DNA of 32,000 nucleotides, taken from positions 150,001 to 182,000 of the forward strand of contig JAUQQN010000001.1 in the NCBI GenBank assembly GCA_030549845.1, written 5' to 3'. Every line of letters starts with the position of its first letter. Position 1 is the stretch's first letter. The position numbers and the translations under genes are program-made. The DNA comes from Patescibacteria group bacterium (GTDB lineage: Bacteria; Patescibacteriota; Minisyncoccia; UBA6257; HR35). The notes below the pieces were generated by a model that saw only the letters and a list, made by a program, of their open reading frames with translations, was not told where the DNA came from and did not search any database. Positions 2,587 through 8,355 of the stretch are shown here, piece after piece.

Positions 2587-2925
2587 TTAAATTTTCGTTG
2601 TTAATCTTATATCAAAAATTCTATCTATACTTATTAAACTCGGCCCAACAGAAATTAAAATTATAAAATAAGCTATTAAAAGAAGTTTGACCAAATCTAT
2701 TCTTTTTTCTTTAATTATTAGTACTAAATTTGCTAAAATCCAAAATAGAGAAATCAAAGAAGTCAAAAAGCCTGTTGCTATCATAAAACTTGATATAAAA
2801 TAAATTAAGCTTTTCAATTTATTTTCTTTAAATTTATTTAAACCAAAATTAAAATATACATATCCCACAATTAAACGAGATAAAAAAATTCCTAGAAAAT
2901 CAAAAGCCCACAAAAATTGTATCAT
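2587..2925 (-). CDS. Small membrane protein, possibly DoxX-like
   Basis: 112 aa with 3-4 hydrophobic segments. The N-terminal LSRLIVGYVYFNFGLNKF loosely resembles the DoxX family start. It lies 2 nt upstream of gyrB on the same strand. Confidence 0.4.
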   Translation of the reverse strand: MIQFLWAFDFLGIFLSRLIVGYVYFNFGLNKFKENKLKSLIYFISSFMIATGFLTSLISLFWILANLVLIIKEKRIDLVKLLLIAYFIILISVGPSLISIDRIFDIRLTTKI

Positions 2926-3958
2926 GGAGAAAGCTTACTTTAACGTAATAAATCAAATTTTCAAGCCTTACCAAGCTTCTATACTTAAATTATATCAAAA
3001 ATTTAGAAGTTTTGAAAAAGTTTACGACTATTTAAAGAGAAATAACAAATTAAAAGAAATAGATATAGAAAAAGAATATGAAAAAGTAAAAAAATTAGAC
3101 ATAGAAGTGGTTACATTAAGCGAAAATGGGTATCCGGAGGTTTTAAAAAATATTGATAGTCCTCCGCTTGGTTTTTATGCATTAGGAAATTTAAAAATTT
3201 TAAAAGAGGAAACCTTATTTGTAGCAATTGTTGGAACAAGAAAGGCAAGCAATTATGGAAAGGAAACATCTTTTAGATTTTCTAAGGGTTTATCAAATTT
3301 AGGAGTCATTATTGTAAGTGGATTAGCTTATGGAATAGATGAGTATGCTCATAAAGGCGCAGTTGATGTAGGGTCTAAAACAATTGCAGTATTAGGAGAA
3401 GGAATTGATTTGGTATTAAATTCTCCAAAAAGAAAATTAGTTGAGAAAATTTTGGAAAATGACGGTTTAATAATATCTGAATATTCTTTATCCACACCTG
3501 CTATGCCTTATCATTTTCCTTTAAGAAATAGAATAATTGCTGGATTGAGTAATGCAGTATTGGTAATTGAAGCACCAATAGATTCTGGAGCACTTATTAC
3601 AGCAAATTATGCTTTAAAGTATGGGAGGGAGATTTTTGTTGTCCCTGGTGAAATAACTAATAAAAATTTTGAAGGAAGCCATAATTTAATTAAGCAAGGA
3701 GCAAAACTTGTAACCTCTATTGAAGATATCTTAGTTGAGTTTGGAATTGATTATAAAGAAAAAAACAAAGTTAAAAAATTGAAGTTATCACCAAGAGAAG
3801 AAATTATTATTGAATCTTTACAAGTTAAAGAAAAGACAATAGAAGAATTAAGTAAAGAAACAAATTTCCCTATTCAAGATTTATTGGTCTTATTAACTCA
3901 TATGGAAATAAAAGGCTTAATAAAAAACAAAGAGGGTAAGTTTTATTTGAATTTGTAA
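2924..3958 (+). CDS. dprA: DNA processing protein DprA/Smf
   Basis: 344 aa. Rossmann-like DprA core motifs are present: VGTRKASNYG, SGLAYGIDEYAHKGA, FPLRNRIIAGLS, IEAPIDSGALITA. A C-terminal winged-helix-like tail is also present. Confidence 0.9.
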   Translation: MEKAYFNVINQIFKPYQASILKLYQKFRSFEKVYDYLKRNNKLKEIDIEKEYEKVKKLDIEVVTLSENGYPEVLKNIDSPPLGFYALGNLKILKEETLFVAIVGTRKASNYGKETSFRFSKGLSNLGVIIVSGLAYGIDEYAHKGAVDVGSKTIAVLGEGIDLVLNSPKRKLVEKILENDGLIISEYSLSTPAMPYHFPLRNRIIAGLSNAVLVIEAPIDSGALITANYALKYGREIFVVPGEITNKNFEGSHNLIKQGAKLVTSIEDILVEFGIDYKEKNKVKKLKLSPREEIIIESLQVKEKTIEELSKETNFPIQDLLVLLTHMEIKGLIKNKEGKFYLNL

Positions 3959-3994
3959 TTGCAAAAATTTGGAGTATAATTTATTTAAGAACAC

Positions 3995-4064
3995 TAGGAA
4001 GGGCTGCCGAGTTCGGAGACCTCCGGGGAGGTGACGGGCCCCCGGAGAAAGGCAGCCCTTCCTA
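3995..4064 (+). ncRNA. GC-rich long hairpin, candidate small structured RNA of unknown class
   Basis: A perfect 14-bp outer stem pairs 3995-4008 (taggaagggctgcc) with 4051-4064 (ggcagcccttccta). An inner 7-bp stem pairs 4022-4028 with 4040-4046. A TATAAT lies at 3976-3981 upstream and a terminator follows at 4075-4137. I could not match it to the SRP, RNase P, tmRNA or 6S consensus. Confidence 0.35.
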
Positions 4065-4074
4065 TGTTATATAT

Positions 4075-4137
4075 AGAGGGAGGCATGGGATTTTATATCT
4101 TATTTTAATTCTTCCCCTGCCTCCCTTTTTATTTTTT
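4075..4137 (+). terminator. Rho-independent terminator-like hairpin with T-run
   Basis: GGGAGGCA (4078-4085) pairs with TGCCTCCC (4118-4125), extended by GGG/CCC. The loop is AT-rich and is followed by tttttatttttt. It would terminate dprA and/or the upstream hairpin RNA. Confidence 0.6.
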
Positions 4138-4274
4138 CTTAATTCTATTTCTTATTATGGTAGCCAAAATTCAAAACCTCACAAGCTCGCCTTGAATCAT
4201 TAAATAACAAATCAAGAAGACCTAAAAGATTAGGACAATCCAAAATCAATCCTCTAAAACAACCTCAATCTGAA

Positions 4275-4297
4275 TTTTCGTAATCTGATTACGAAAA
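4275..4297. repeat. Perfect 10-bp palindrome with 3-nt spacer, followed by a 9-nt tandem duplication
   Basis: ttttcgtaat-ctg-attacgaaaa. The right arm continues into acgaaaact-acgaaaact (4291-4308). Confidence 0.6.
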
Positions 4298-4334
4298 CTA
4301 CGAAAACTAATAATTTTTCTTTTAGGTCCATCTA

Positions 4335-4362
4335 TTGACAAAAAAATAAAATTTGTTAAAAT
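4335..4362 (+). promoter_or_regulatory. Sigma-70-type promoter
   Basis: TTGACA (4335-4340), a 16-nt spacer, then TAAAAT (4357-4362). A GGAGG Shine-Dalgarno at 4381-4385 and an ATG at 4395 lie downstream. Confidence 0.5.
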
Positions 4363-4394
4363 TAGAGCGGAAATCTAGAAGGAGGTGTTGGGTA

Positions 4395-4721
4395 ATGAGA
4401 CGTTTATTTTTATTTTTAATTTTCGCAACGGCGTTTGTCGGTGGCTGCGGAGGGGGACATAAGCCCCCCTCCGTTGAGACGTTGCCTCCGGCTCCAACCA
4501 CAAAGGTGGAGTCGGGGCCTATTGTGGGCTGGTGGTGGGTAACCATCACCAGCCATACGACCCCTTCCCGGATAGAAGTTATCCGGGAAGGGGTAACATT
4601 GTTTAATTTTTTAGAGACCCGGGAGGTCAAAATCGACCTCCCGGAGGGTAATTACCTCATCCGGGTGATATACCCGGATGGGGGCTCCTGGGAGGGAGAG
4701 CTGACTCTCCCTCCCAAATAG
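4395..4721 (+). CDS. Putative small lipoprotein (108 aa); coding status uncertain because the region is an array of GC hairpins
   Basis: A GGAGG lies 9 nt upstream of the ATG. The N-terminus MRRLFLFLIFATAFVGGC looks like a lipoprotein signal with a lipobox Cys. The C-terminal part (DLPEGNYLIRVIYPDGGSWEGEL) resembles a small beta-sandwich. Against coding: Arg is CGG and Pro is CCC/CCG, unlike the AT-rich codon choices of the neighbouring genes. The antisense frame is also open. Confidence 0.4.
   Translation: MRRLFLFLIFATAFVGGCGGGHKPPSVETLPPAPTTKVESGPIVGWWWVTITSHTTPSRIEVIREGVTLFNFLETREVKIDLPEGNYLIRVIYPDGGSWEGELTLPPK
4447..4716 (+). ncRNA. Array of seven consecutive GC-rich stem-loops (candidate structured RNA segment)
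   Basis: Stems read directly from the sequence, seven in total. 4447-4474: 10 bp. 4484-4518: 14 bp with 2 bulges. 4527-4554: 12 bp with a GTAA loop. 4560-4594: 15 bp perfect. 4619-4644: 10 bp perfect. 4655-4683: 12 bp. 4689-4716: 12 bp. Three G.T pairs (4491/4512, 4535/4546, 4657/4681) are wobble pairs only if the plus strand is the RNA. Confidence 0.45.
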
Positions 4722-4733
4722 TTTTTTCCACAG

Positions 4734-4759
4734 CCCCACCCTTTCGGGTGGGGTTTTTT
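4734..4759 (+). terminator. Rho-independent terminator
   Basis: CCCCACCC-tttc-GGGTGGGG followed by six T. Confidence 0.8.
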
Positions 4760-4779
4760 ATTCCACTTTTATTTGACTT

Positions 4780-4848: not shown

Positions 4849-7800
4849 TTATTCTATCCAAATATTAACTTTTCCAAAATTTTCATATTCGAATTCCCTT
4901 TCCAATTTAAATTTTTTAGAAACTCCAAATTTAAGGTTGCTTATATTTGTTTCTTTTTTAATTCTTAATAGATTTTTTGAAATAATGTTTTTTAGGTTTT
5001 TAGGCAATAACATGGAAACATTTATAGGAGTTATAGGGATTAATCCTAAATCTTGTCTTAAATCTTGAATATATCTTATAAAATCATTTACTATTCCTTC
5101 TTCTTTAAGCTCTGGTGTTATTTCTTTATTAAGCCAAACATAAATAGGAGAGTCTGCAAATAAATAGTTTTCTTTATTTTTAGGCTCTCCAATTATTACT
5201 TTTTTAACATTTACTTCTTCTTTGATAAGTTCCAAATATTCTTCTTCTATTTTTTCTCCTAAATAAACTTCTTTTAAGGGTTGCCTTACTTTTATTCCAT
5301 TATTTTTTCTTAGCATCAAAATTTCTGATGTTATTTCTCTTACTTTTTTCATTTCTTTAAGTATTTCTTTTTCTTTTGTTGACAAATCTTTAGGGGGTAA
5401 AACTTTTTCTAAATGAACACTTATTTCTACCTTTTTTCTATCTTTCATTTCATTTTTTATCTCATGATAAAGAAACTCACTAAAGAAAGGAGTTATTGGA
5501 GCAGAAATTTTTGCTATTTCAAAAAGATATTCTTCTAACTTCATCATAGCGATTTGTATTTCATTTTCATTTTTAGGTCTTTGGAACCTTCTTCTGCTCC
5601 TTCTTAGCCACCAATGAGATAAATCTTGAACTAAATTTACCAGTTCTCTACTTGCTTTTGTTGGATTGAAGTTATACAAAGATTCATAAACTATTTTATA
5701 AGCTTCTTTTAATCTCACATCAAACCATTTATCAATTATTTCTTTACTTTGATAATTTCTAATTTTTAATTTCTTTGGTTTTCTGTACATTCTATAAAAG
5801 TTAAAAATATTCAAAAGCAGATCAAAGTAATTTCTCTTTAGGTTTATAAGCTCTTCTTCTATGAATCTTTTATTATCAGCAGATTCACTTACATAAACAA
5901 AGTAAAACCTTAAAAGATCAGCTCCGTATTTTTCGATGGCCTCCATAGGATCTACAACGTTTCCCAATGACTTGGACATTTTTCTTCCCTCCTTATCTAA
6001 AACTAAGCCCAAAGAGACTACATTTTTGTAAGTTTCCATTTTCTTTATCAAATACCCTATAACTAACAAAGTATAAAACCAACCCCTTGTTTGATCTATT
6101 CCTTCCACAATAAAATCTATAGGGAATAAAATTCCTTCATCTATTTCTTTTTTATTTTCAAATGGATAATGAAAAGATGCAAAAGGAACACACCCTGAGT
6201 CAAACCAAATATCTGCTAAGTCTTCTATTCGTTCTTTTAATCCTCCACATTTACATTTCCATTTAAATTTATCCACATAAGGCCTATGAATATTTATTTC
6301 ATTATTTTCATCTCTTGGCAAAATTAAAAGTTCAATTTCTTTATATTCCCCAGGTTCGAAGTTAAATTCTTCATTTTCTGCTGTTTGTTTTTTAGAAAGC
6401 CCTTGCATTTCTCCACAAAGAGCCCATAAAGGATCCTGATGTGATACTATTAAGATTGTTTTTCCTTCATACTTTTCTTCCAAATCTAAAATTACTGATA
6501 TCATTCTTTTTCTTACATCATCCAAACTTTCACCATTTTCTGGGGCTTTGAAATACTGATCATATTGATCTTCATAAAGCTTATCATATTCTTTTATTGA
6601 TTTACCGTTTAATACACCAAAATCTATTTCTCTTAACCTTAGATCTACAATAATCGGAACTCGTAAAATATTAGAAAGTATTTCTGCAGTTTGCTTCGTT
6701 CTTAAAAGTGGTGAAGTTACAATAAAGTCGATATTCTTCTTCGCTAACTCTTTAGCCACCTTCATTATTTGTTTTTCTCCATTCGAGGTCAATGGGTTAA
6801 AGAAAACTTCAGGGTAGGAAGATAGTAATTCTTTTACATTACTTATGGCTTCTCCATGCCTTAAAAGAATGTATTTATTTTTTGATTTGAAATGTTGAGC
6901 AAGCTCCTTTAAACTCCCTATAACTTCTATTGAACCACAGCTATTACATTTCCATATAGGAAGAGGTATACCCCAAACCCTTGTTCTTGATAGATTCCAA
7001 TCTTTTCCTTCCTTAAGCCATTCATAAAATCTACCACTTCCAATTTCTTTTGGATACCAATTTATTTTTTCGTTAATTTTTAATAGCTTATCTTTAAATT
7101 TAGATACTTTAATCACCCAATTTTTTGTTGAATAATAAATAAGCGGTGTTTTACATCTCCAACAATGGGGATAATCGTGTTCATATCCAGTTAAATTTGC
7201 ATAGAGGATTAAATTTCTTTCTTTTAAGTCTTCAACAATATATGGATCTGCATCTTTAAAAAATAAATTATTTATTTTACTACTAATAAAAGCTGGTTCA
7301 TCAAAATTAAAAATTCCTGACTCGTTTATTGGATTTATTAGAGGAAGATTATATTTTTTACTTAATTCAAAATCCTCTTCACCAAATGCAGGAGCTATAT
7401 GAACTATTCCTGTACCTTCGTCTTCTTTTACGAATTCTGCTAAATAAACTTTAAATGCATTTTCATAATTTTCTATATTTTCTGGAGGATAAAGAGGTTC
7501 ATATTCTAAACCTTCTAGTTCTTTGCCTTTTATTTTTTTAATCTCTATTCCTTTAAATCCCTGAGGAAGCCTTAAAGATATTAGAATTTCTTCATTTAAG
7601 TCAAATACTTTATATTCATACTCTGGATGTATTGCTAAAGCTATATTTGAAATTAACGTCCATGGGGTTGTTGTCCAAACTAAGAAATAAATTTGTTTTT
7701 CAGAAAATTCTTCTAAAAAGTGTGGAATGTTTTTCAACTTAAACTTAACATAAATATCAGGATCTAAAACTTTTTTATAAGCATCAACTTGTCCTACTTC

Positions 7801-8355
7801 GGCTTGAGAAAGGACGGTTTCGCATCTTGGGCAATAAGGAAAAACTTTATATTCTTCTTTTAAGTACCCTTGATCATAAATCTTTTTAATAATCCACCAA
7901 CAGGATTCCATGTAAAATGGATCATAAGTGATATAAGCATTTTTATGATCAATCCAAAATCCCATCATTTCATCCATTTTCTCCCATTCATTTTTATATT
8001 TCATAACAAGCTCTTTACATTTTGCATTAAATTTATCAATTCCATATGAAAATATATCTTTTTTTGTTTTAAATCCTAAAAATTTTTCAGTGGCAACTTC
8101 TATAGGAAGTCCGTGCGTATCCCATCCTGCCCTTCTTTCAGCATATTCACCAATCATTGTTCTAAATCTTAAAATAATATCTTTATAAACTCGGGTAAGA
8201 AAATGCCCGATGTGAGGTTTATCATTAGCATACGGAGGACCTTCAACAAAAACAAATCTTTTATTTTTTATATTTCTTTTTAAGCTTTCTTTAAAAATAT
8301 TATTTGATTTCCAAAAATTTATTATTTTCTTTTCCAATTCACTTAGATTTAGCAT
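4849..8355 (-). CDS. ileS: Isoleucine--tRNA ligase with an inserted histidine-phosphatase-family domain
   Basis: 1168 aa. It has the HIGH motif (PHIGH), KMSKS, the editing-domain signature WTTTPWTL, and Cys clusters (CPRC, CWRC, WKCNSC, CKCGG). Residues about 491-686 carry RHG-phosphatase motifs (see findings). Confidence 0.93.
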   Translation of the reverse strand: MLNLSELEKKIINFWKSNNIFKESLKRNIKNKRFVFVEGPPYANDKPHIGHFLTRVYKDIILRFRTMIGEYAERRAGWDTHGLPIEVATEKFLGFKTKKDIFSYGIDKFNAKCKELVMKYKNEWEKMDEMMGFWIDHKNAYITYDPFYMESCWWIIKKIYDQGYLKEEYKVFPYCPRCETVLSQAEVGQVDAYKKVLDPDIYVKFKLKNIPHFLEEFSEKQIYFLVWTTTPWTLISNIALAIHPEYEYKVFDLNEEILISLRLPQGFKGIEIKKIKGKELEGLEYEPLYPPENIENYENAFKVYLAEFVKEDEGTGIVHIAPAFGEEDFELSKKYNLPLINPINESGIFNFDEPAFISSKINNLFFKDADPYIVEDLKERNLILYANLTGYEHDYPHCWRCKTPLIYYSTKNWVIKVSKFKDKLLKINEKINWYPKEIGSGRFYEWLKEGKDWNLSRTRVWGIPLPIWKCNSCGSIEVIGSLKELAQHFKSKNKYILLRHGEAISNVKELLSSYPEVFFNPLTSNGEKQIMKVAKELAKKNIDFIVTSPLLRTKQTAEILSNILRVPIIVDLRLREIDFGVLNGKSIKEYDKLYEDQYDQYFKAPENGESLDDVRKRMISVILDLEEKYEGKTILIVSHQDPLWALCGEMQGLSKKQTAENEEFNFEPGEYKEIELLILPRDENNEINIHRPYVDKFKWKCKCGGLKERIEDLADIWFDSGCVPFASFHYPFENKKEIDEGILFPIDFIVEGIDQTRGWFYTLLVIGYLIKKMETYKNVVSLGLVLDKEGRKMSKSLGNVVDPMEAIEKYGADLLRFYFVYVSESADNKRFIEEELINLKRNYFDLLLNIFNFYRMYRKPKKLKIRNYQSKEIIDKWFDVRLKEAYKIVYESLYNFNPTKASRELVNLVQDLSHWWLRRSRRRFQRPKNENEIQIAMMKLEEYLFEIAKISAPITPFFSEFLYHEIKNEMKDRKKVEISVHLEKVLPPKDLSTKEKEILKEMKKVREITSEILMLRKNNGIKVRQPLKEVYLGEKIEEEYLELIKEEVNVKKVIIGEPKNKENYLFADSPIYVWLNKEITPELKEEGIVNDFIRYIQDLRQDLGLIPITPINVSMLLPKNLKNIISKNLLRIKKETNISNLKFGVSKKFKLEREFEYENFGKVNIWIE

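Follow-up and report, generated by a model that had tools for sequence, protein, structure and literature searches.

Introduction

Among the closest described counterparts of the locus treated here is the lpp gene of Escherichia coli, for which Nakamura, Pirtle and Inouye in 1980 reportedly drew about nine stable stem-loops in the 322 nt of the coding body, a feature linked to an unusually long half-life of the messenger RNA (mRNA). Our subject is a short gene between dprA and ileS in a 32,000-nt stretch of DNA from a Patescibacteria contig (JAUQQN010000001.1; the whole stretch is called the window below), in which a predicted lipoprotein is encoded almost entirely by seven consecutive GC-rich hairpins. 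As in lpp, the mRNA would be short and monocistronic, with a strong promoter and a terminator, and the product a small lipoprotein, the abundance of which we infer. The stems here, however, are far longer and near-perfect (10-15 bp), take up about 75% of the mature coding sequence (CDS) and stand out as GC islands (68% against 27% GC). The product is predicted to be an immunoglobulin (Ig)-like sandwich while that of lpp is a coiled coil, there is no sequence homology between them, and, unlike the conserved lpp, the gene is hypervariable.

Borrelia vlsE and the Vlp/Vsp systems of Mycoplasma are variable surface lipoprotein loci, and to our knowledge dense hairpins have not been described for them. 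The present gene shares with them that it is a GC-rich outlier lipoprotein gene in a genome of about 28% GC and that it varies strongly between or within strains. It differs in having no silent cassettes or template copies in the 32 kb, no tandem repeats and no invertible promoter, and in that its variation is seen between strains in metagenomes. The target genes of diversity-generating retroelements (DGRs), which are common in the Candidate Phyla Radiation (CPR), are similar in the localised hypervariability of a surface or ligand-binding protein. DGR changes are adenine-specific and lie in a C-terminal variable region, whereas the differences here include indels and all base classes and span the signal peptide and the 3' untranslated region (UTR); neither a template repeat nor a reverse transcriptase lies within the window, and a DGR was rejected.

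Rickettsia palindromic elements and the GC clusters of yeast mitochondria are also GC-rich or palindromic and are found in frame within genes of AT-rich genomes. Both are mobile, occur in many copies with a common consensus and have entered conserved proteins that existed before; here, by contrast, seven unique hairpins at a single locus encode the core strands of the protein. Dispersed copies, the mark of such elements, of mobile GC clusters and of repetitive extragenic palindromes or miniature inverted-repeat transposable elements, are absent from the 32 kb scanned, where a search with the hairpin sequences gave no similar copy beyond AT-rich chance words. Nor does a hairpin-free orthologue, as expected for an insertion, occur among 5.8 billion proteins. 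An earlier note on this DNA had suggested the Rickettsia analogy, and it is not supported: no two of the seven stems have the same sequence, and six of the seven core strands are encoded by them. Stems maintained by template switching (Monttinen and Loytynoja 2022, PMC8794818) are alike in being perfect, in their multi-base "compensatory" changes and in their newly made arms. They were described for ribosomal RNA and other RNA genes, while the stems here lie inside a coding frame that has to be respected.

The locus is an extreme variant of a structured lipoprotein mRNA joined with a hypervariable surface-protein locus and not a new RNA class; the combination is undescribed as far as we searched.

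Results

A lipoprotein gene with its own promoter and terminator

The open reading frame (ORF) at 4395-4721 on the plus strand encodes a prolipoprotein of 108 amino acids. It has three relatives, P0002 (67% identical), P0003 (E = 3e-17) and P0005 (E = 1e-5), found by searching 5.8 billion clustered proteins and by a profile search of 1.84 billion representatives; the latter recovers the distant alleles, although over the CDS the two can hardly be aligned with one another as DNA. All three relatives are encoded at the same position between dprA and ileS (loci L001, L013 and L014), and the family amounts to four protein clusters among the 5.8 billion, all at this locus and in two CPR lineages. 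A fourth full allele besides that of the window, L018, belongs to the window's population; it and the partial alleles L016 and L026 were found through neighbouring proteins in two independent sequencing studies. L013 and L014 both come from one metagenome, a Joint Genome Institute (JGI) sample.

In the five full alleles (window, L001, L018, L013 and L014), all in the order dprA-X-ileS, only sense frame 0 is open throughout. The antisense frame, which the earlier note had found open, is indeed open in the window (102 amino acids) but it is not kept across the five alleles, and every non-sense frame is broken in at least one of them. The indels between the window and L001 measure 12, 3, 3 and 6 nt, all multiples of three, and their substitutions number 20, 22 and 41 at codon positions 1, 2 and 3. 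The ratio of nonsynonymous to synonymous divergence (dN/dS, Nei-Gojobori) of the lipoprotein gene is 0.28-0.48.

The signal peptide (amino acids 1-17, 4395-4445) has the native AT-rich composition and leads to the lipobox VGGC with Cys18 at 4446-4448. By the rule that was applied (a positive n-region, a hydrophobic h-region and [LVI..][ASTVIG][GAS]C), the window product qualifies as a bacterial lipoprotein and is a predicted substrate of Lgt and LspA. An n-region, an h-region and the lipobox Cys followed by GGG are found in the five full alleles and in the partial L016. The residues ahead of the Cys are MRRLFLFLIFATAFVGG in the window, IMLTG in L001, ILIMGG in L018, FTVG in L016, LTLAG in L013 and LTVMG in L014; the signal peptides are nearly unalignable between alleles, yet the basic n-region, the hydrophobic core and the lipobox are all kept.

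The mature part consists of a GGG-HKPP linker and a predicted seven-strand Ig-like beta-sandwich. AlphaFold2, given the four-sequence alignment, placed a disordered linker before seven beta strands (residues 36-43, 46-53, 59-64, 67-73, 77-82, 85-92 and 98-105), with a predicted local distance difference test above 90 for residues 35-108, and its model of P0005 (32% identical to P0001) was confident and of the same seven-strand architecture. Foldseek returned only generic sandwich matches of the Ig-like, fibronectin type III or macroglobulin type. Sequence searches in Pfam, NCBIfam, PHROGs and PDB gave no family beyond signal-peptide noise, the weak NCBIfam matches being to lipoprotein signal models only. 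Neither blastn against phages and plasmids nor a viral-contig scan matched the gene. Scans of JGI metagenome contigs with protein patterns and a degenerate DprA C-terminus found none, in a collection that evidently does not hold the L013 and L014 contigs, which carry the DprA pattern.

Codon usage sets the hairpin part off from its neighbours, as had been remarked before for its arginine codons: CGG occurs in none of the 8,845 codons of the 22 other ORFs in the window, yet it encodes all four Arg of the mature part. CCC, CCG, ACC, CTC and TCC, each at most 8% of their families in the 22 ORFs, are the codons of the hairpin stems.

Upstream of the gene, a sigma-70-type promoter, TTGACA-16-TAAAAT with an upstream TG (4335-4362, plus strand), matched at 11 of 12 positions in the promoter scan. 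The Shine-Dalgarno sequence AGGAGGTG (4380-4387, plus strand) ends 7 nt ahead of the ATG at 4395. Folding and a terminator scan both gave an intrinsic terminator at 4733-4759 (plus strand), CCCCACCC-TTTC-GGGTGGGG followed by T6, that is, a GC-rich stem-loop of 8-10 bp abutting a U tract. The promoter, Shine-Dalgarno sequence, start codon and terminator listed in the earlier note are thus all present. The promoter is conserved in L001, L016, L018 and L026, L013 and L014 share an equivalent TTGACA...TATAAT promoter at 100% identity, and a GGAGGTG box precedes the start codon in all alleles. The terminator is invariant in L001 and L018 and forms the 3' border of the variable cassette. Two of the internal hairpins (H4 and H7, see below) also score in a simple terminator scan; their T-rich tails, AACATTGTTT and AATAGTTTTT (the latter holding the stop codon and the start of the 3' UTR), come several bases past the stem and do not abut it. 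From these signals the lipoprotein unit is a monocistronic gene, and probably a very strongly expressed one.

Judged by the comparison of alleles, the ORF at 4395-4721 is a real gene and not a non-coding RNA. The same comparison shows purifying selection on the protein frame, on the lipobox and on the predicted fold.

The seven hairpins

RNAfold of the plus-strand transcript 4369-4762 gave exactly seven local hairpins and the terminator. The minimum free energy (MFE) is -218.5 kcal/mol against -141.6 +/- 6.3 kcal/mol for dinucleotide shuffles, none of 100 shuffles being as good; the z-score of this comparison, which the earlier note had proposed as a check, is -12.2. An inverted-repeat search recovered the perfect stems of 15, 12 and 10 bp. 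The seven stem-loops between 4447 and 4716 that the earlier note had described were therefore found again, as were its GTAA loop (4527-4554), its G.T pairs (4491/4512, 4535/4546 and 4657/4681) and, on recounting, its 160 G+C in the 280 nt of 4441-4720. The minus strand folds almost equally well (z = -12.05), so the fold energy of this one sequence leaves the strand undecided. The strand is assigned by the coding frame and by the non-Watson-Crick pairs inside the stems, which across the alleles comprise 19 G.U and no A.C (not all independent). The relevant pairing is therefore that of the sense strand, and the plus-strand transcript that had been deduced from the wobble pairs of the window is supported.

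All seven hairpins are present in the three close alleles, which differ by 25-30% in DNA, with energies from -19.6 to -31.6 kcal/mol, and they are strikingly uniform in stability. H1 (4447-4474; GGAGGGGG...CCCCCCTCC) encodes the GGGHKPPS linker; every pair cell of it is paired in the three-allele alignment and its energies are -21.9 to -31.6 kcal/mol. H2 (4484-4518) encodes PPAPTTKVESG, including beta strand 1, and is rebuilt with other arms in three alleles (L001, L016 and L018; -21 to -24 kcal/mol for each); three designs of it exist. H3 (4527-4554), with the GTAA loop, encodes GWWWVTITS (beta strand 2) and has energies of -26.7 to -31.0 kcal/mol; its 12-bp stem is paired at 92% and carries a compensatory change from C-G to G-C in L001. 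H4 (4560-4594) is a perfect 15-bp stem (4560-4574/4580-4594) encoding TPSRIEVIREGV (beta strand 3). Two of its pairs have changed on both sides, from U-A to C-G in L001 and from G-C to C-G in L018, and at 80 C it still has -12 kcal/mol.

After H4 comes the only long unpaired AT-rich stretch in the mature CDS (4595-4618), which encodes beta strand 4 with a conserved F-x-F and uses the native AT-rich codons TTT, AAT and TTA. H5 (4619-4644) has a perfect 10-bp stem (4619-4628/4635-4644) and encodes REVKIDLP (beta strand 5). It is a codon-aligned palindrome, CGG GAG GTC ... GAC CTC CCG, in which R-E-V mirrors D-L-P, and the conserved D-L-P codons, GACCTCCC, which form the 3' arm of H5 in the window, belong in L013 to another hairpin, as its 5' arm. 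H6 (4655-4683, with an outer extension over 4646-4687) has a 12-bp stem paired at 92% and encodes YLIRVIYPDGG (beta strand 6), with double-sided compensatory changes at four pairs across alleles. H7 (4689-4716), a perfect 12-bp stem (4689-4700/4705-4716), encodes WEGELTLPP (beta strand 7), and 97% of its cells are paired in the three-allele alignment. Six of the seven predicted strands thus coincide with hairpins, H2 to H7, while strand 4 is the unpaired one; this coincidence may be only one of similar periodicities of about 11 codons.

Rfam 15 at gathering thresholds found only a transfer RNA (tRNA) in the window. With permissive filters the best match was His_leader on the minus strand, at 39.2 bits against a threshold of 49, a generic hairpin match. 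A search for transfer-messenger RNA and tRNA found none at the lipoprotein site. With no family above chance in Rfam, the view of the earlier note that no known RNA class fits is maintained.

Selection on the RNA structure

When the protein and the codon usage were kept and synonymous codons permuted, the MFE of the mature CDS had z-scores of -10.0 in the window, -8.8 in L001, -3.6 in L013 and -4.7 in L014. Against shuffles of codon order the values were -18.8, -14.1, -5.3 and -6.0, respectively. In the three-allele alignment 89.3% of pair cells are standard, compared with 47-53% when the partners are slid by 1-3 columns, and nine pairs have changed on both sides against 4.7 +/- 1.4 in shuffles, of which 2 of 500 reach nine. 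Between the window and L001, 43 of 197 paired columns have changed compared with 25 of 72 unpaired ones. Mapping of pairs through the codon alignment under-counts the structure where stems were re-made in a shifted register, and each hairpin was therefore refolded by itself. The cores of H1, H5 and H7 are the most conserved parts.

The base composition follows the pairing. In the window allele, GC is 68% at paired positions but 27%, as in the genome at large, at unpaired ones; third codon positions have 76% GC where they are paired and 33% where they are not, and over the five alleles paired positions have 62-71% GC and unpaired ones 27-42%. This split rules out both a foreign source rich in GC and a process with a general GC bias, and the doubt of the earlier note about simple horizontal transfer of a GC-rich gene is supported.

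L013 and L014 have hairpins that are less numerous and weaker, and that lie at other positions with other partners. A non-coding RNA of conserved architecture was considered for the locus and rejected, the helices being displaced in these two alleles and the sequence coding. Taken together, the alleles indicate that the sense-strand transcript has been selected to be packed with independent GC-rich hairpins, and that what is conserved is the property of being densely hairpinned, with no fixed architecture; a specific RNA fold or ligand is made less likely by this. By the same comparison, hairpins in close alleles are kept by compensatory changes, while in distant alleles their arms are re-made or have swapped partners.

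These results bear on the options of the earlier note. Its novel structured RNA is given up, since the homologues conserve the frame, the lipobox and the predicted fold, and its dual coding and structured mRNA is retained, since the structure far exceeds the level that the protein would force. It had also reasoned that an RNA function would be refuted by homologues that keep the amino-acid sequence while their stems break without compensation. The first half is what we observe, the amino-acid frame being conserved; the second is not, as the stems are unbroken and show compensatory changes and re-made arms.

Hypervariability of the gene

Over about 5 kb of flanking sequence the window and L001 are 91-100% identical (mostly at least 97%), apart from one patch of 83-87% in ileS. 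Identity drops to 54-84% in the strain-variable island at 3996-4774 and is 97% again from 4775. For L013 and L014, the flanks, promoter, Shine-Dalgarno sequence and terminator are essentially identical, while the sequence from just past the ATG to just short of the terminator is barely alignable. The dS and dN of the lipoprotein gene are 0.72 and 0.24 between the window and L001, 0.52 and 0.25 between the window and L018, and 2.2 and 0.72 between L013 and L014; within the window's population its dS is 0.52-0.75. For comparison, window-L001 and window-L018 dS values are 0.08 and 0.008 for ileS and 0.15 and 0.09 for dprA, and the lipoprotein gene exceeds this range (0.008-0.15) by 5-65 fold in dS and exceeds its neighbours by 15-100 fold in dN. 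The variation extends into the 3' UTR, and its limits are exactly the conserved promoter and terminator.

The allele of L016 is a mosaic, with H1-H2 shared with L018 and a 5' end as in the window. The L013 allele is nearer to the alleles of the window species (dN 0.53-0.58; DprA 74% identical) than to the co-occurring L014 (0.72). From these comparisons the lipoprotein gene can be described as a strain-hypervariable mosaic cassette, sharply bounded by its conserved promoter and terminator.

In four samples the contig ends inside or just before the lipoprotein gene (L015 1-305, L016 4036-4593, L026 1734-2059 and L027 1747-2030). Such breaks fit either co-existing alleles that break the assembly graph or poor coverage of the hairpins.

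Growth temperature and folding energy

The window has 27.9% GC overall, and its only GC islands are 3960-4106, 4390-4772 and one tRNA-Ser. The DprA relatives place the host in Patescibacteria, among Paceibacteria/Parcubacteria-like metagenome-assembled genomes (MAGs). The fraction of the amino acids IVYWREL in 22 window proteins is 0.4425, equivalent to about 80 C by the Zeldovich formula, and the tRNA-Ser has 66% GC. One DprA relative (60% identical) belongs to a KatS3mg MAG, a series which we take to be derived from hot springs. The host is therefore probably a thermophilic, 28%-GC bacterium of the Patescibacteria (CPR).

At 37 C the folding energy of the CDS is -182 kcal/mol against -41 +/- 8 for windows of other genes. 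At 75 C it is still -77 kcal/mol, compared with -0.8 +/- 1.2 kcal/mol for 43 equal-sized windows of other CDSs. For a single hairpin the energy is about -20 to -30 kcal/mol at 37 C. At 70-80 C about -7 to -16 kcal/mol is left, an ordinary value for mRNA structure that ribosomes can traverse.

Discussion

Proposed reading: a structured mRNA for a variable surface lipoprotein

The reading that we prefer, with a probability of about 60%, is that the gene encodes an abundant and variable surface lipoprotein whose mRNA has been selected to stay structured at about 70-80 C; the reason for the structure we infer as follows. At growth temperature the remaining AU-rich transcriptome would be essentially unstructured, and the hairpins would shield the lipoprotein mRNA from single-strand-specific endonucleases and 3' exonucleases and might also pace translation and export. 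The outcome would be a long functional half-life and a high yield of a major surface protein. An increase of functional half-life through mRNA structure has been reported (bioRxiv 10.1101/549022). The likely mutational route by which perfect arms would be re-created is replication template switching, which creates and repairs stems, perfect ones in a single event (PMC8794818). Divergent alleles would be kept by diversifying or balancing selection on the exposed protein, in contact with phages or host cells, and would be shuffled via homologous recombination in the conserved flanks.

Several points weigh against this reading. The role in mRNA stabilisation is derived from composition and calculated folding energies, and the rare codons (CGG, CCC, CCG, ACC and CUC) together with stable stems could lower translation instead. 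The reading gives no reason for a need of structure in a single gene of the 32 kb. The covariation statistics are based on three alleles of common ancestry, one of which also supplied the structure that was tested. The IVYWREL index is crude and inflated by AT-rich genomes, and thermophily is otherwise taken from one tRNA. The confidence of the AlphaFold models is no proof of translation. Selection on the protein alone cannot raise dS; old alleles with recombination, or local hypermutation, are needed in addition.

Alternative explanations

A different account is a palindrome-driven contingency locus, in which the in-frame quasi-palindromes would act at the DNA level: plus-strand hairpins formed during replication would stall forks and provoke template switching, slippage and recombination, so that the surface protein sits in a hot spot and the RNA hairpins are a by-product. 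It would accommodate a dS 5-65 times that of the neighbours, which is beyond the reach of protein selection alone, and a variability that spans the 3' UTR and ends at the conserved promoter and terminator. Near-perfect stems with short loops are typical of DNA palindromes and not of functional RNAs, arms are re-made in new registers, substitutions are clustered (5 within 21 nt at the H4 apex of L018), and a second GC-rich hairpin unit (3995-4132) is strain-variable too; perfect stems from one template switch are documented (PMC8794818). Nevertheless, template switching copies existing sequence, and the 68% versus 27% GC of stems and loops under AT pressure would be left unexplained. Paired columns change less than unpaired ones, the opposite of what a hot spot centred on hairpins predicts, and conservation is highest in the cores of H1, H5 and H7. 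An asymmetry of G.U alone is in line with RNA, though plus-strand single-stranded DNA would give it as well, while the mosaics and the position of L013, nearer to alleles of another species than to L014, favour old recombining alleles. We consider this account unlikely. Equally unlikely is a bolder idea, a coding gene that evolves with the nucleic-acid hairpin as its unit: each of six GC hairpins would encode roughly one beta strand, and the in-frame quasi-palindromes would both hold the mRNA in its fold at high temperature and serve, by template switching and recombination, as self-renewing diversification modules; this would be a new kind of contingency locus in episymbiotic CPR bacteria, possibly a gene that arose de novo from stacked terminator-like hairpins between convergent genes.

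A function of the RNA beyond its own message, with the array serving also as a protein-binding scaffold or sponge, as an RNase III substrate that yields small RNAs or as a thermosensor, is less probable again. In its favour, selection on structure is strong and confined to the sense strand, stability is uniform across the seven hairpins, CCCGG/CCGGG cores occur within the 32 kb only in this unit and in the hairpin at 3995-4064, and 11 nt of that hairpin could pair with H5. Against it, the loops have no conserved motif and the architecture is not fixed, which makes a specific ligand or three-dimensional fold unlikely; Rfam has no family that scores better than chance, and L013 and L014 have fewer and weaker hairpins. 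The GC island in a 28% GC genome, the dprA-ileS spacer that is missing in L003, L004 and L006, and the patchy presence among similarly distant lineages would suit a gene invaded by or assembled from mobile GC-rich palindromes, like those of Rickettsia and yeast mitochondria, or received recently from a GC-rich donor. Against such an origin, the seven stems are distinct and have no further copy in the window, where the other GC islands are the stretch 3960-4106 and a tRNA; phage, plasmid and viral-contig searches gave no match; the hairpins encode the conserved beta strands themselves and are not insertions into an older protein; the unpaired codons and the signal peptide are native in composition; and the family is confined to one locus in two CPR lineages. 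It is very improbable. We give least credit of all to a purely non-coding structured RNA with a fortuitous ORF, Shine-Dalgarno sequence and signal peptide, which stays highly improbable even with a fold z-score of -12, with GC-rich palindromes that hold several frames open (hence the 102-amino-acid antisense ORF) and with codons almost unused elsewhere in the genome. The sense frame alone is open in all five alleles, third-position bias and a dN/dS below 0.5 are present, the lipobox is kept despite unalignable signal peptides, protein homology is detectable where the DNA is unalignable, and the AlphaFold folds are confident and concordant.

Neighbouring elements and related loci

The hairpin unit lies between two convergent genes, dprA (2924-3958, plus strand) on its 5' side and ileS (4849-8355, minus strand) on the other. 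In L003, L004 and L006 the two genes adjoin directly with the spacer absent, and the entire dprA-ileS spacer of about 890 nt is therefore lineage-specific; presence of the lipoprotein gene is patchy among lineages at similar distance. L024 (DprA 83% identical, an intermediate lineage) has AT-rich sequence after dprA and then the end of the contig, and is uninformative for the lipoprotein. In L005, at 3128-3245, a homologous TTGACA...TATAAT promoter and terminator flank about 70 nt of C-rich sequence, resembling the 3' UTR of L014, in which neither a Shine-Dalgarno sequence nor an ORF is present. Probably a lipoprotein gene was deleted here and left this remnant, or else the segment is a small transcript of its own. 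The encoded IleS has an internal His_Phos_1 (phosphoglycerate-mutase-like) domain. The patch of low identity to L001 in ileS covers 200 nt (6775-6974, 83-87% identical against 96-100% in the rest of the gene), and this pattern suggests a recombination import.

Directly after the dprA stop codon lies a second GC-rich unit, 3953-4140. It consists of a promoter-like TTGTAA-16-TATAAT, a 70-nt hairpin at 3995-4064 with an energy of -44 kcal/mol and, at 4071-4132, a further hairpin that has a T run and resembles a terminator. The unit is conserved in L001, L018, L026 and L027, with few compensatory changes (one pair altered on both sides), and is itself strain-variable; a hairpin in L005 is related to it and shares GACGGGCCCCC. 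A search of the unit in Rfam gave no match, and the candidates signal recognition particle RNA, 6S RNA and riboswitch for the hairpin at 3995-4064 found no support there. The unit may be a small RNA.

Between this unit and the lipoprotein promoter, a stretch of about 200 nt (4140-4330) is absent from L001. It contains a perfect 23-bp palindrome, TTTTCGTAATC-T-GATTACGAAAA, at 4275-4297, a tandem pair of TACGAAAAC at 4290-4307 that is a single copy in L016 and L018, and an 11-nt inverted repeat, GACCTAAAAGA/TCTTTTAGGTC, at 4219-4229 and 4318-4328. Lying immediately ahead of the promoter, the stretch resembles an operator or a small element that was inserted.

Conclusions

About 75% of the codons of the mature protein double as bases of near-perfect RNA stems, and both layers are maintained across alleles. 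For those who screen AT-rich genomes, the locus is a caution that a GC island with an extreme fold z-score is insufficient to call a non-coding RNA. In about 330 nt it offers a compact test bed for the limits of selection on mRNA structure inside a reading frame, for the setting of mRNA lifetime by structure in thermophiles with otherwise unstructured transcriptomes, and for the maintenance of stems by template switching in coding DNA. Little is understood of how Patescibacteria attach to host cells and how they are exposed to phages. This hypervariable and probably abundant lipoprotein is a candidate for host or phage interaction in the group, and a useful strain marker.

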